From a virus (Duplodnaviria > Caudoviricetes), in IMG/VR virus record IMGVR_UViG_3300014204_000125, positions 32,001 through 96,000 of that record: a DNA stretch of 64,000 bases, one strand, 5' to 3'. The position numbers were made by a program, and so were the translations under genes. Below the pieces are notes generated by a model. That model searched no databases. It was given only the letters and a program-made list of their open reading frames with translations, and had not been told where the DNA came from. This document shows, piece by piece, positions 24,930 to 56,944 of this stretch. The stretch's first letter is position 1. Every line of letters begins with the position of its first letter.

Positions 24930-25257
24930 TATCTTCCTCCCGTTTTATTTTCTTTGAGGTCTGTTTGATTATCTTTTTAAGCCAAGCGATTTCCTTGAGT
25001 TTCGTTTCCTCGTTCTTCCCGTAGCGCTCTATCAACCCCATCTTCGCCAGTTTCTCTGCGACATAGACCTCGAGTATGCCAGCGCATCGTTTACAAATAC
25101 AGCACGAGGGCCAATATTCGAAAGAAGTCTCTTGATTTAAACCCGAGGTTAAAGAGAATCGGCCGTCATCCTTTTCCTTTTCGCAGACATCGCAGATATC
25201 GATTTCTTTATCCACACGTTTATAAACTTTGACGGAGGTTTTGACTATTTTCTTCAT
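24922..25257 (-). CDS. Hypothetical protein with two CxxC pairs
   Basis: CDVC and CKRC; ATGA coupling. Confidence 0.6.
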   Translation of the reverse strand: MKKIVKTSVKVYKRVDKEIDICDVCEKEKDDGRFSLTSGLNQETSFEYWPSCCICKRCAGILEVYVAEKLAKMGLIERYGKNEETKLKEIAWLKKIIKQTSKKIKREEDND

Positions 25258-25748
25258 TCGTAAACCTCCACGTAATATTTATATTTACTCGCGAAATCGA
25301 GGAGTAAAGGTTTGACTTCATTTTCCCAATTAAGCCCGCCTAATCCGCACCCAATTTTTGGGAAAGCAATCGATGTTACTCCAGTGCAACCCAATTTCTT
25401 ACCTTCAGGACTTACGTGGTGCAGTATTTTTGCAAGCCCTCTTTTTATAAGTTCAATATCGGATTTCTCACGCCAATCCCATTTTGTAGGGAACAAACAA
25501 ACCGAATAATCCTTGTCTTGTTTATAAATATTATAATGGACCTTGGTGTAATCTTTTACCCCCTTTTCCAACTTCATAGTCACCAAACAAGACTTATAAA
25601 AATCGTTCAATCTTTTACCGAAAAGATCTTTGAAAGTTTTAGCCAATCCCGCACCCATAACCCCGACAAGATTCGTGGGGCATACCAACATATCGCATTT
25701 CGATTTAAAAATATCCCCGCCCTTTATTATTTCAAGATTATCCATCAT
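25254..25748 (-). CDS. Macrodomain ADP-ribosylhydrolase (DarG/TARG1-like)
   Basis: GDIF, N.VGVMGAGLA..FK, FPTKWDWR, SIAFPKIGCGLGGLNW. Confidence 0.88.
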   Translation of the reverse strand: MMDNLEIIKGGDIFKSKCDMLVCPTNLVGVMGAGLAKTFKDLFGKRLNDFYKSCLVTMKLEKGVKDYTKVHYNIYKQDKDYSVCLFPTKWDWREKSDIELIKRGLAKILHHVSPEGKKLGCTGVTSIAFPKIGCGLGGLNWENEVKPLLLDFASKYKYYVEVYE

Positions 25749-26611: not shown

Positions 26612-27238
26612 TTATACAACAGTCTTCCAATCCGCGGCGATGGCGCCCGTGGATCTATAACTCGACACGGCACAGCAATACCCGGAGAAAGCATCGCCCA
26701 TTCCTTTGGAATCCCCGGAAAACGACATGCAAGCCGACTTAGATATCCCGATCGATGAACCCGCAATCATCGCGTCCTGATTCGCAGCGAGAAAAACGAA
26801 CTGCCATTTGTAAACATCCGTCTGGTGAGATATCATTTCGAAGACCTGTTCGCGTGTGAATTTTCTGGAAGCGTTTTCTTCCCCGTCGGTGAGGATTGTC
26901 ACGATGACTTTCTCGGGGCGCTCGTCTTCCTTCATAGCCGCAATCCTGGCCCCGATTCGGGTTACGGTTTCCCCGATCGCATCGTAAAGCGCGGTGCCGC
27001 CGTTGGGGACATAGGTTTCGGTGTCAAGCCTCTTGACTTCACCTACGAGAGCGTTCTCGCATACAATTTTGAGATCCCCATCAAAGGAAAAAAGAACGAG
27101 GTCCATCCTGGCTTCCCCGGGTTCTTTCTGCTGGGCTTCGAGAAAAGTATTGAATCCGCCGATCGCGTCGTTGCGGATGGATTCCATTGATCCTGATTTG
27201 TCGATGATAGAAACAATTAAGGTGAGATCTTTTTTCAT
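26612..27238 (-). CDS. von Willebrand factor A domain protein
   Basis: MIDAS motif IIDKSGSM, GGTALYDAIG, ILTDGEENAS, FLAAN. Confidence 0.9.
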   Translation of the reverse strand: MKKDLTLIVSIIDKSGSMESIRNDAIGGFNTFLEAQQKEPGEARMDLVLFSFDGDLKIVCENALVGEVKRLDTETYVPNGGTALYDAIGETVTRIGARIAAMKEDERPEKVIVTILTDGEENASRKFTREQVFEMISHQTDVYKWQFVFLAANQDAMIAGSSIGISKSACMSFSGDSKGMGDAFSGYCCAVSSYRSTGAIAADWKTVV

Positions 27239-28082: not shown

Positions 28083-28111
28083 AAAAAAAAGTCCTGAATT
28101 TCTTCAAGACT
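28083..28111 (-). terminator. Rho-independent terminator ending the RNA cluster
   Basis: AGTCTTGAA-GAAA-TTCAGGACT followed by a T run. Confidence 0.8.
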
Positions 28112-28119
28112 TCTTTTGC

Positions 28120-28420
28120 CGGGTGTACGCCCGAGGTAGTCGCAGAACCACCTTAAAATATAAGGAGGAGCTAGTCCGGGATGAAGATTTGCGCCTATCC
28201 ACACTTTGCGCTGTCTCCGTTTTACAAGGGTGGACCAAGTTCCCGGATCAAGCCCCTACTCTTTGATATTAAAGACCCCAAGGGAGGGTTCGCGCCTCAT
28301 CTTCCCGGTGCGGTGGTTATCCCACAATACGAACTTAATCGGACGCACTTTTTACACCACGCGTGGCGGGTTTGCTCTTTCTTTCAGCCTTGCAAGACCT
28401 TTCATTGAGCTACCTCAGAG
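28120..28420 (-). ncRNA. Candidate ~300-nt structured RNA of unknown class
   Basis: No minus-strand ORF of track length; lies between the tmRNA 3' end and the terminator. Long-range helices CTGAGGTAG/CTACCTCGG and CCGGGA-GAAGAT/ATCTTC-TCCCGG. Confidence 0.5.
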
Positions 28421-28425
28421 AGATT

Positions 28426-28835
28426 TGGTGGAGGTGTGGGAAATTGCATCCCAGTCCGAAGATCTTTCCCTGTCTTGATTTTTACACGCTTATCCCTTTT
28501 ACCCGCGGGAAGGGTGTCGGTTTTGAGGCGTTACCCTGTGTCATGGTAGAACAACCGATGCCCCATGATCCACTTGCGTTAGATTCTTTACGCGGATAAC
28601 TCCGTTGGCAAGTTCGCAGAGTTTTTACGCGGGCGTCCCCTTTCGGTTCGGCCGTGGGTTCACAATTAAGCGGCTAACATAACAGGAGCGAGTTCTTTTA
28701 CGAACAAACCTCTGACAATATTGTCCACCTGATCGAGAACTGAATTAGTTTTGGCAATTAGTGTTTGTGCATTAAGGAAGCACGCCTTTGCGTGACAAGA
28801 TAGTTCGTTATCTCCGTCGAAACTAGTTCACCCCC
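28426..28835 (-). ncRNA. ssrA: tmRNA (transfer-messenger RNA)
   Basis: 5' GGGGGTGAACTAGTTTCGAC pairs with 3' CACCTCC-A-CCA, including the G3:U alanine wobble. T-arm TGGGA-TGCAATT-TCCCA. Resume context TAATT|GCC. Tag frame 28755-28666 reads AKTNSVLDQVDNIVRGLFVKELAPVMLAA*. Confidence 0.95.
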
Positions 28836-29129
28836 GAAATATTTGTTGCGGCGCTTCAAGTCTTGGGTGATCATGCCAGACGAGCTTCGGGAGATCCAGA
28901 GAAAAGAGGGCCCTCTAATATCCCTTTGGGATTCCCATACCGCAATTAAATTTTATAGGGGAGCCAAATCGAGTTGAATAATTTCTCTGGCGGTACTAAG
29001 GTCAAAGGTCATATTCGGTTGGACATGGATCCCCATTTTCAAAAAACATATGGATAACCGGCCGGGAACTCAAGTGGATAAATCCCTGGGGCGGGACATT
29101 TCTTCTGAGCCCCGAACGATTACATTCCA

Positions 29130-29158
29130 AGTATAGCATTAATGTTAGATGGTGTCAA
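29130..29158 (-). promoter_or_regulatory. Strong sigma70-type promoter for the tmRNA/ncRNA cluster
   Basis: TTGACA (29158-29153), 17 bp, TG-extended TATACT (29135-29130). Confidence 0.8.
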
Positions 29159-31998: not shown

Positions 31999-32026
31999 AT
32001 TCTAACATAAAAAACAGAAATGTCAA
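31999..32026 (-). promoter_or_regulatory. Sigma70-type promoter heading the left arm
   Basis: TTGACA, 16 bp, TAGAAT with extended TG. Confidence 0.65.
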
Positions 32027-55738: not shown

Positions 55739-56944
55739 ATGATAGGAGTCGATACGGGCCATAAAACTCCCATAAAGATATGGGTGTCGAATATTGAAGA
55801 GGGCGCATTGAATCAGGCATATAATCTAGCAGATCTTCCTTTTGTTTTTAAACATATCGCCCTTATGCCTGATTCCCATCAGGGTTATGGGATGCCCATA
55901 GGTGGCGTGCTTGCAACCAAAGGTATAATAATCCCAAACGCTGTCGGAGTAGATATTTCTTGTGGCGTAGCCTGTATCAAAACAAGCCTTAAAACAGAAA
56001 CAACTTCGATTGAGCAAATTAAGGAACTCATGGGCTTTATCCGAAAAGCTATCCCTCTCGGACATAACCATCACAGCGAAGCAAAAATATCCGAAATGGA
56101 ATTTTATTGCGGGCCAAAGGATTCAATAAATAAAGATAAATATCCTATTTTCTATCAGGAATACAATTCGGCAACTCACCAGATAGGCACGCTCGGCGGA
56201 GGAAATCACTTTATAGAAATCCAAAAAGACCCGGAAGGGTTTATATGGGTCATGATTCACTCCGGTTCCCGCAATATTGGAAAAAAGGTAGCAGACCATT
56301 ACAATGAAAGAGCAAAAAACGAAAACTGGAGATGGTTCTCTTCGGTCCCTAAAGAGGTAGATCTTGCATTTCTTCCTCTCGAATCGGAGATTGGACTTCA
56401 GTATTTTAAAGAACAACAAATGTGCGGCACGTTCGCGAAAGCAAACAGGGAAGTAATGTTATCTTCCATTATGGCAATAATAAAAAATATGTTCCCTGAA
56501 TGCGAATTTCTTCCTATCGTATATGAAAATCCGATATTTGACATCGCTCATAACTATGCCGACATCGAGAACCACTTCGGCGTCAATGTAATTGTACATC
56601 GCAAGGGAGCCACGAGAGCATATGAAGGCCAACTTGGGATAATCCCGGGAAGCCAAGGCACAAAATCATATATAGTGAGAGGGCTCGGCAACCCCGACTC
56701 ATTCAAGTCGTGTTCTCACGGCGCCGGCCGTAAGATGGGCCGCAAGGTAGCGCAGCAAAGCCTTAATCTTCAGGATGAAATAGATCGAATGAATTCGCAA
56801 GGAATCGTTCACAGTATTCGTTCGGCAAAAGATCTTGACGAGGCCGCGGGGGCTTACAAGGACATAGACGAAGTAATGGAAAACCAGAAAGACCTCGTTG
56901 AAATCGTAACCGAACTTAAACCAATCGCAGTTATAAAAGCATAG
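55739..56944 (+). CDS. rtcB: RtcB RNA ligase
   Basis: MPDSHQGYGMPIGG, VGVDISCG, GTLGGGNHF, HSGSR, HNY, HRKGAT, IPGSQG, SCSHGAGR, DEAAGAYKDI. Confidence 0.95.
   Translation: MIGVDTGHKTPIKIWVSNIEEGALNQAYNLADLPFVFKHIALMPDSHQGYGMPIGGVLATKGIIIPNAVGVDISCGVACIKTSLKTETTSIEQIKELMGFIRKAIPLGHNHHSEAKISEMEFYCGPKDSINKDKYPIFYQEYNSATHQIGTLGGGNHFIEIQKDPEGFIWVMIHSGSRNIGKKVADHYNERAKNENWRWFSSVPKEVDLAFLPLESEIGLQYFKEQQMCGTFAKANREVMLSSIMAIIKNMFPECEFLPIVYENPIFDIAHNYADIENHFGVNVIVHRKGATRAYEGQLGIIPGSQGTKSYIVRGLGNPDSFKSCSHGAGRKMGRKVAQQSLNLQDEIDRMNSQGIVHSIRSAKDLDEAAGAYKDIDEVMENQKDLVEIVTELKPIAVIKA

Follow-up and report, generated by a model that had tools for sequence, protein, structure and literature searches.

Most bacterial tmRNA tags are about 10 residues long, and a C-terminal LAA is the ClpX degron. 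The E. coli ssrA promoter lies just upstream of the gene, and ssrA is used as an integration site by many temperate phages. In one survey, tmRNAs were carried by 2.3% of phage genomes, tag length not being discussed in its passages on tmRNA (PMC9004378). According to the same passages, the tmRNA of phage Melnitz differs in class from that of its host. The mycobacteriophage Bxz1 appears among the phage ssrA genes treated in PMC4131195, a source which also notes that tmRNA can be inhibited by a molecule with a tRNA-like domain only, such as that of mycobacteriophage DS6A.

Here we analysed a 64,000-nt stretch of phage DNA (the window; positions 32,001 to 96,000 of IMG/VR record IMGVR_UViG_3300014204_000125), in which an initial annotation had proposed a tmRNA gene with an unusually long tag. 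The gene belongs to a known kind, the phage tmRNAs with long tags, and within it is ordinary apart from its strong divergence. As far as can be judged from sequence, it would specify a working, phage-encoded one-piece tmRNA (SsrA) and be accessory to a virulent phage of 115 kb found in landfill and groundwater, a reading to which we assign a probability of about 0.72.

Identification and anatomy of the tmRNA gene

The Rfam model RF00023 matched the minus strand of the window at 28426–28835 with 92.1 bits (gathering score 47, E = 1.6 × 10−34). Model positions 1–374 of 374 were all covered, so that the match was full length, and a search of the whole 115,335-bp genome returned this locus only. 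The 410-nt tmRNA of the initial annotation, which gave no strand, thus withstood the covariance-model check that had been proposed for it. The molecule is in one piece, and its 3′ terminus is an encoded CCA. Its main features, in window coordinates, were as follows.

28426–28835, minus strand: one-piece tmRNA gene with encoded CCA (Rfam RF00023; same ends from ARAGORN -ps; MFE fold)
28816–28835, minus strand: 5′ half of the tRNA-like domain, with acceptor strand GGGGGUG and D-loop analogue CUAGUUUCGAC (sequence, Rfam alignment)
28437–28453, minus strand: T-arm, with stem UGGGA/UCCCA and loop UGCAAUU, G at the psi55 position (Rfam alignment, pattern match)
28426–28436, minus strand: acceptor 3′ strand CACCUCC (with U70), discriminator A and CCA (sequence, fold)

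The acceptor stem of 7 bp, GGGGGUG/CACCUCC, contains a G3:U70 pair, as alanyl-tRNA synthetase requires, and is followed by the discriminator A and CCA. The D-loop analogue CUAGUUUCGAC has AG where GG is usual. The T-loop UGCAAUU, already reported in the initial annotation, was located at 28448–28442 by both the Rfam alignment and a pattern match. An unconstrained MFE fold of the tmRNA recovered the acceptor stem, the T-arm and helix 2. Pseudoknots PK1 to PK4 were aligned by Rfam at low posterior probability (mean 0.63 over the pseudoknot region), a value obtained from a single sequence.

Confirmation with ARAGORN, also proposed earlier, was obtained in part. With default settings, no tRNA or tmRNA was called in the window or the genome. 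With relaxed thresholds (-ps), a tmRNA was called with the same ends as in Rfam, but with a different, downstream tag of 12 codons. The Rfam score of 92 bits is below those of nearly all sampled Omnitrophota (105–189) and of most sampled Patescibacteria (58–189). Given this low score, the tmRNA may have undergone some functional decay.

Phage genome and related phages

The phage genome (115,335 bp) has a 123-bp direct terminal repeat and was rated complete. It has 44.7% G+C, and of the genetic codes the standard one fitted best. Encoded proteins include terminase-like and clamp-like proteins, a DnaB-type helicase, a primase, a RecT-like protein, an RtcB RNA ligase and a Macro-domain protein. 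Neither a tyrosine integrase nor a serine recombinase was found in the whole genome, and ARAGORN found no tRNA gene in it. The initial annotation had noted the absence of smpB from the window; the corresponding domain, PF01668, was absent from the 64,000 nt and from the complete 115,335-bp genome as well. The phage was found in a landfill metagenome, from which the stretch probably derives, and in a groundwater metagenome of another study. Contigs of the groundwater study cover the tmRNA region letter for letter, with no differences, so the sequence of this region is not an accident of assembly.

Relatives of the tmRNA itself were not detected among GenBank phages by blastn, nor in IMG/VR by exact-pattern scans with the tag start and the T-arm. 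Matches in IMG/VR to the 20-mer at the tmRNA 5′ end were rejected, all being unrelated permuted phage tmRNAs of alphaproteobacterial type. The phage as a whole has few relatives: its terminase had only four homologues (37–41% identity) among 5.8 billion proteins. By alignment, 15 related contigs were picked up; none of the six that were searched carried a tmRNA, including a complete genome of 115,414 bp. The latter (G465), the nearest complete related phage, has terminal repeats, 31% G+C and one tRNA-Gln. Structural and replication modules are common to both phages (loci L373–L378), with protein identities of 22–58%, most of them 28–42%. Because this complete relative has no tmRNA, the gene is seen as a lineage-specific accessory gene. 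The 13-point gap in G+C content suggests that the two phages have different hosts.

Among the few accessory genes common to both phages is a Macro-domain protein (PF01661, E = 4 × 10−9) at 25254–25748 on the minus strand. An RtcB-type RNA ligase (PHROG 1075, E = 8 × 10−117) is encoded at 55739–56944 on the plus strand. The presence of RtcB and a tmRNA in a phage free of tRNA genes suggests that the two may serve a common theme, the repair of RNA and the maintenance of translation.

A neighbouring gene of 208 residues (26612–27238, minus strand) belongs to PHROG 7371, a family with no assigned function. Relatives were found at 18 IMG/VR loci and 80 metagenome loci, at identities of at most 58%. 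One of the 18 IMG/VR loci (L019) and none of the 80 metagenome loci had a tmRNA nearby; that in L019, which adjoins the PHROG 7371 gene, is another tmRNA with a long tag. Elsewhere, in other large phages, the PHROG 7371 gene adjoins big tRNA arrays (L017, L022, L024), with 28 tRNAs in L017. Suppressor-type tRNAs with anticodons UUA and CUA occur on the viral contigs L022, L024 and L029, and the phages concerned may use recoded stop codons.

The tag reading frame

The tag region comprised three features.

28753–28755, minus strand: resume codon GCC after UAAUU, at tmRNA position 81 (Rfam consensus resume region, high posterior probability)
28666–28755, minus strand: tag frame P0001, 29 codons and UAA (translation, sequence)
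28658–28740, minus strand: long imperfect hairpin (extended helix 5) covering codons 6–29 and the stop, with apex GUUC-GUAAAA-GAAC (fold)

Translation of 28755–28666 on the minus strand gave exactly P0001, the 29-residue tag and stop quoted in the initial annotation. The LAA ending described there was also recovered, the frame closing with LAA and UAA, and a second in-frame stop, UGA, lies two codons past the UAA. Resume positions in 192 bacterial tmRNAs, called by the same analysis as that of the phage tmRNA, had a median of 93, with 90% of them within 70–115. Position 81 lies inside this range.

The initial annotation had allowed that the true resume codon might lie further downstream, in which case the real tag would be short. 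Two sites come into question: the GUG of the 12-codon frame, and an in-frame GCU that would leave a 7-residue tag, ...VMLAA. The GUG, which sits directly after the stop of the long frame, is likewise preceded by a UAAUU motif and was the choice of relaxed ARAGORN; the program nevertheless labelled its own tag 'Tag not identified'. At position 173, this start would fall among the 6% outliers of the 192 bacterial calls, which are themselves probably miscalls. Its frame runs through G+C-rich sequence that Rfam aligned to pseudoknot 2, and ends in ...TPA, which is not a hydrophobic degron. The GCU would give a tag of ordinary length, but it is at position 147, outside the 70–115 range, and is hidden within the 3′ side of the long hairpin. 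By comparison, Rfam places its consensus resume site with high posterior probability on the GCC of position 81. We consider resumption at either downstream site very unlikely, and retain the 29-codon frame.

The tag-coding hairpin had a folding energy of −28.2 kcal/mol (z = −3.42), and 1 of 200 shuffled sequences was equally stable. The same hairpin, with the usual helix-5 apex, was present in the fold of the whole molecule. As the coding sequence from codon 6 past the stop forms one long hairpin, the long tag accompanies an expanded helix 5. Tag regions of bacterial tmRNAs with long tags were also strongly structured (median z of about −3.7).

Flanking sequences and proposed function

The tmRNA lies mid-way in an ORF-poor stretch of ~1 kb, bracketed by promoter-like and terminator-like elements.

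29130–29158, minus strand: sigma-70-like promoter, TTGACA, 17 nt, TATACT, with TG (consensus scan, 11/12 matches; a consensus match only)
28836–29125, minus strand: ORF-poor leader between promoter and tmRNA (ORF list; fold z = −1.35)
28118–28425, minus strand: ORF-poor trailer of ~310 nt after the CCA (ORF list; fold z = −2.2)
28084–28117, minus strand: strong intrinsic-terminator-like hairpin of 15 pairs, followed by a U run (consensus scan; also in the trailer fold)

The promoter-like element precedes the tmRNA 5′ end by about 290 nt, an unusual distance for ssrA. Structure in the leader and trailer was modest, the trailer being somewhat better than its shuffles, and neither matched any Rfam family at E values up to 5. 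The tmRNA 3′ end was not repeated in the trailer in either direct or inverted orientation (P = 0.3–0.97), and the trailer showed no likeness to 170 downstream flanks of bacterial tmRNAs.

How the tmRNA is expressed and charged, how it draws on host SmpB and how tagged proteins are degraded is inferred as follows. The strong sigma-70-like promoter would drive a non-coding RNA of ~1 kb with the tmRNA as its middle part, which host RNases would trim. Host alanyl-tRNA synthetase would be expected to charge the molecule, which has G3:U70, the discriminator A and CCA. With smpB missing from the phage, host SmpB would have to be used, delivering the tmRNA to stalled ribosomes together with EF-Tu. Translation would resume at the GCC (28755–28753), and 29 encoded residues would follow the charged alanine up to the UAA stop. 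The rescued protein would end in the hydrophobic LAA degron, presumably recognised by ClpXP-type proteases. The predicted outcome is that ribosomes are kept free during infection.

A different function would be that of a decoy, in which the tRNA-like domain titrates host SmpB or disturbs host trans-translation while the tag frame is incidental. The lack of smpB in the phage and the strong divergence of the tmRNA (92 bits) would suit a decoy, for which the tRNA-like-only inhibitor of the DS6A type provides a precedent (PMC4131195). Yet resume site, open frame, perfect LAA-stop and double stop have all been kept, and would be superfluous for a pure decoy; we rate this function as quite unlikely. 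It could also be asked whether the gene is an attachment-site remnant, left by integration at a bacterial ssrA of the host, or host DNA brought in by misassembly. Most of the IMG/VR pattern matches listed were indeed host tmRNAs at prophage borders. Here, however, the gene is full length and not a 3′ fragment, tyrosine and serine recombinases are absent from the genome, and the tmRNA is interior to a terminal-repeat genome, between phage genes. Misassembly is contradicted by the identical sequence in a second, independent study. An origin of either kind is hardly credible. A working tmRNA, acting through the host's own rescue and proteolysis factors, is the reading that we prefer.

Tag length in bacteria and phages

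Tag lengths were compared with those of three sets of tmRNAs, in which tags were called by relaxed ARAGORN, with some miscalls among them. The IMG/VR set derives from matches to one 3′-end pattern, and its counts refer to the matches listed.

Omnitrophota, evenly drawn: 50 tags; median 24; at least 20 residues in 37; at least 25 in 19; maximum 31
Patescibacteria, evenly drawn: 51 tags; median 19; at least 20 residues in 25; at least 25 in 15; maximum 32
IMG/VR contigs, host-type prophage borders removed: 32 distinct tags among the matches listed; median 21; at least 20 residues in 24; at least 25 in 13; maximum 35

The phage tag is far above the textbook length of about 10, as the initial annotation had pointed out. 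Its description as unusual could not be upheld, given the maxima of 31 and 32 residues in Omnitrophota and Patescibacteria and the 24 of 32 distinct phage tags, among the matches listed, with 20–35 residues. That long tags might be normal for the host phylum had been foreseen, and this was found for the only lineages with similar-looking tmRNAs. Phage contigs, too, commonly carry long tags irrespective of the host. Since 29 residues fall within the normal range of phage-borne, Omnitrophota and Patescibacteria tmRNAs, tag length is no special feature of this gene.

Among the IMG/VR matches listed, host-type tags of 10–13 residues came from prophage borders. The tag of Bxz1 had 25 residues by ARAGORN, and that of Bacillus phage G had 13. 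Three long-tag tmRNAs were found deep within viral contigs of 73–158 kb, one of these contigs being a complete genome. Two long-tag families recurred on viral contigs: one with tags of 30–35 residues and the core ...EAD(A/E)IL...FG... (L394, L396, L410, L421, L458, L477, L481, L507), the other with tags of 21 residues and the core ...GLIR.E... (L422, L427, L445, L457, L466, L473, L484). The L394 gene is at 63.7 kb in a complete genome of 158 kb. No motif was shared between the present tag and the IMG/VR phage tag families listed (best score 25, shuffle mean 24.1, P = 0.41).

The T-loop and D-loop variant

The T-loop had been called non-canonical in the initial annotation. The pattern scan of 3′ ends in 185,579 species genomes found UGCAA in at least 120 bacterial one-piece tmRNAs, and it is better described as a recurrent natural variant. 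Matches listed were from Elusimicrobiota, many Patescibacteria, Omnitrophota, Melainabacteria and some Clostridia. Permuted tmRNAs of alphaproteobacterial type on viral contigs had the same T-loop together with the same CUAGUUUCGAC D-loop. In the evenly drawn samples of Omnitrophota and Patescibacteria, about one-fifth of tmRNAs had a UGC T-loop. Within these samples (L163–L275), the UGC T-loop occurred with AG or AA in the D-loop in 22 cases and with GG in none. As these D-loop and T-loop positions touch in tRNA-like folds, the combination fits a coupled change on both sides of a tertiary contact.

This variant also bears on detection. ARAGORN at default settings missed 44% of the UGCAA tmRNAs among the matches listed (L031–L150), and 15–22% of the tmRNAs found by Rfam in the evenly sampled Omnitrophota and Patescibacteria. 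Such tmRNAs are accordingly undercounted wherever a survey relies on ARAGORN, and those of phages and candidate phyla are probably under-annotated.

Origin of the long tag and the host question

For residues 4–17 of the tag, the helical hydrophobic moment was 0.69, a value that 0.3% of shuffled sequences attained (P = 0.003), in agreement with the amphipathic-looking segment noted in the initial annotation. Long tags of Patescibacteria had a median moment of 0.39, with 14 of 24 at P < 0.2, while Omnitrophota tags (median 0.29) showed no amphipathic tendency. ClpP was present in 51 and Lon in 17 of 61 sampled Patescibacteria genomes (G004, G405–G464), in a nearly complementary distribution: 7 of the 10 genomes with no ClpP match had Lon. 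Several of these seven had tags ending in ...YAFA-like sequences. A switch to Lon is known in Mycoplasma. The long amphipathic tags of Patescibacteria were found in ClpP-bearing genomes, so that the Mycoplasma switch is not an obvious model for them.

Two explanations of the long tag were given about equal weight, namely inheritance from the host and a phage-typical extension. Under the former, the phage would have captured its tmRNA from a bacterium with long tags, of the Patescibacteria or Omnitrophota, and would infect an ultra-small bacterium of this kind. The tRNA-like-domain variant and the tag length are both within the range of these phyla. Median tags of 24 and 19 residues, with at least 25 in 19/50 and 15/51, the AG and UGC variant in about one-fifth of the tmRNAs of both phyla, and similar tmRNA lengths of about 390–410 nt all agree with such a capture. 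Long tags of Patescibacteria, like that of the phage, are AK- or AN-initiated and amphipathic, with an AP a few positions short of the C-terminus. The phage comes from landfill and groundwater, both of them typical habitats of the two phyla. Sequence likeness was nevertheless limited: in blastn comparisons of the tmRNA with the 120 pattern matches and 401 Omnitrophota genomes, the tRNA-like ends aligned and nothing else. Profile HMMs of four groups scored 17.8, 18.4, 17.0 and 12.5 bits on the tmRNA, and did not discriminate. The best tag alignments scored 37 (Patescibacteria) and 34 (Omnitrophota) and were not significant, with P of about 0.03–0.07 before correction, P being the share of interior-shuffled tags that reached these scores (3–7%). 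A sugar-pathway enzyme of the phage was equally far from both phyla, at 38–41% identity. The variant also occurs in other phyla and settings, including Elusimicrobiota, some Clostridia, Melainabacteria and the phage tmRNAs of alphaproteobacterial type. The Melnitz tmRNA, being of another class than that of its host (PMC9004378), also argues against reading a host from a phage tmRNA. Host mirroring is possible, though we regard it as doubtful.

Other host leads were no more specific. An Atlas look-up returned generic glycosyltransferases only, and tblastn searches with the helicase and RtcB against GenBank phages gave distant matches only, on phages of many different hosts. The proposal in the initial annotation that the tag might help predict the host is weak. 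Tag length and variant do place the tmRNA in the range of the candidate phyla, but it has no relative at the sequence level, its tag similarity is not significant, and the Melnitz case shows a mismatch. On present sequence evidence, the tmRNA does not identify the host. A stronger version, in which the tmRNA, with its AK-initiated amphipathic tag of Patescibacteria type and its AG/UGCAA tRNA-like domain, is a true host marker, the phage infects Patescibacteria or Omnitrophota, and an amphipathic module common to phage and host engages a partner beyond ClpX alone, seems improbable.

Under the second explanation, the extension is a trait of phages, and its amphipathic part acts beyond marking for ClpXP, through docking to an adaptor or another protease, as suggested initially, or by altering the fate of host proteins. 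Bxz1 carries a tag of 25 residues, and that of its mycobacterial host has about 12. Among the IMG/VR matches listed, 24 of 32 distinct tags away from prophage borders had at least 20 residues and 13 had at least 25, and the three long-tag genes deep in large viral contigs, one of them the complete 158-kb genome, point the same way, as does the high amphipathic moment of the present tag. Against this, the tag is unlike the phage tag families among the matches listed (P = 0.41), no relatives were found that would show the extension to be conserved, and no binding partner is known. The extension is also an RNA hairpin, and part of its pattern may reflect a constraint on RNA instead of peptide. 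A phage-specific role of the extension is offered tentatively. A working phage tmRNA with a long tag, as set out above, is compatible with either origin.

Comparison with known systems

This phage is one more that carries its own ribosome-rescue RNA. Two apparent oddities of its tmRNA have been removed: its T-loop is of a common form, accompanied by a matching change in the D-loop, and 29 codons are within the normal range. What the gene adds is an independent data point for the tendency of phage tmRNA tags to reach two to three times the bacterial norm, seemingly without explanation so far. If the extension is functional, phages would alter the fate of proteins from stalled ribosomes, beyond topping up rescue capacity. 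Judged by similarity searches, the tmRNA is an orphan, with no relative detectable outside the tRNA-like ends.

Compared with E. coli SsrA, the phage tmRNA has the same architecture, the G3:U70 pair, a GCN resume codon with U at −5 and A at −4, and the C-terminal LAA. E. coli differs in its 10-codon tag, against 29 in the phage, in a D-loop with GG, in the T-loop UUCGA, and in the presence of smpB in the genome. The tmRNAs of Patescibacteria and Omnitrophota resemble that of the phage in length (380–420 nt), in the AG and UGCAA variant (about one-fifth of them), in tags that commonly have 20–32 residues, and in a strongly structured tag-coding region; the AK- or AN-initiated, amphipathic tags of Patescibacteria add to the likeness. 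They differ in that the likeness is confined to the tRNA-like domain, in that most of them score higher in Rfam, and in being chromosomal, whereas the present gene is in a phage genome with no smpB.

The long-tag phage tmRNAs of IMG/VR (for example L394, in the complete 158-kb genome, and L445) are likewise in one piece and inside large viral contigs, with tags of 21–35 residues. Unlike the present gene, they have canonical UUCRA T-loops and tags that fall into motif-sharing families, none of those listed fitting the present tag. Bxz1, a mycobacteriophage of cluster C, is similar in being a large virulent phage with a complete one-piece tmRNA (73.9 bits in Rfam), a long tag (25 residues) and no smpB. 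Its tmRNA is within a tRNA array, whereas the present phage has no tRNA, and its tag is acidic, ends in ALV and bears no sequence likeness to the tag described here.
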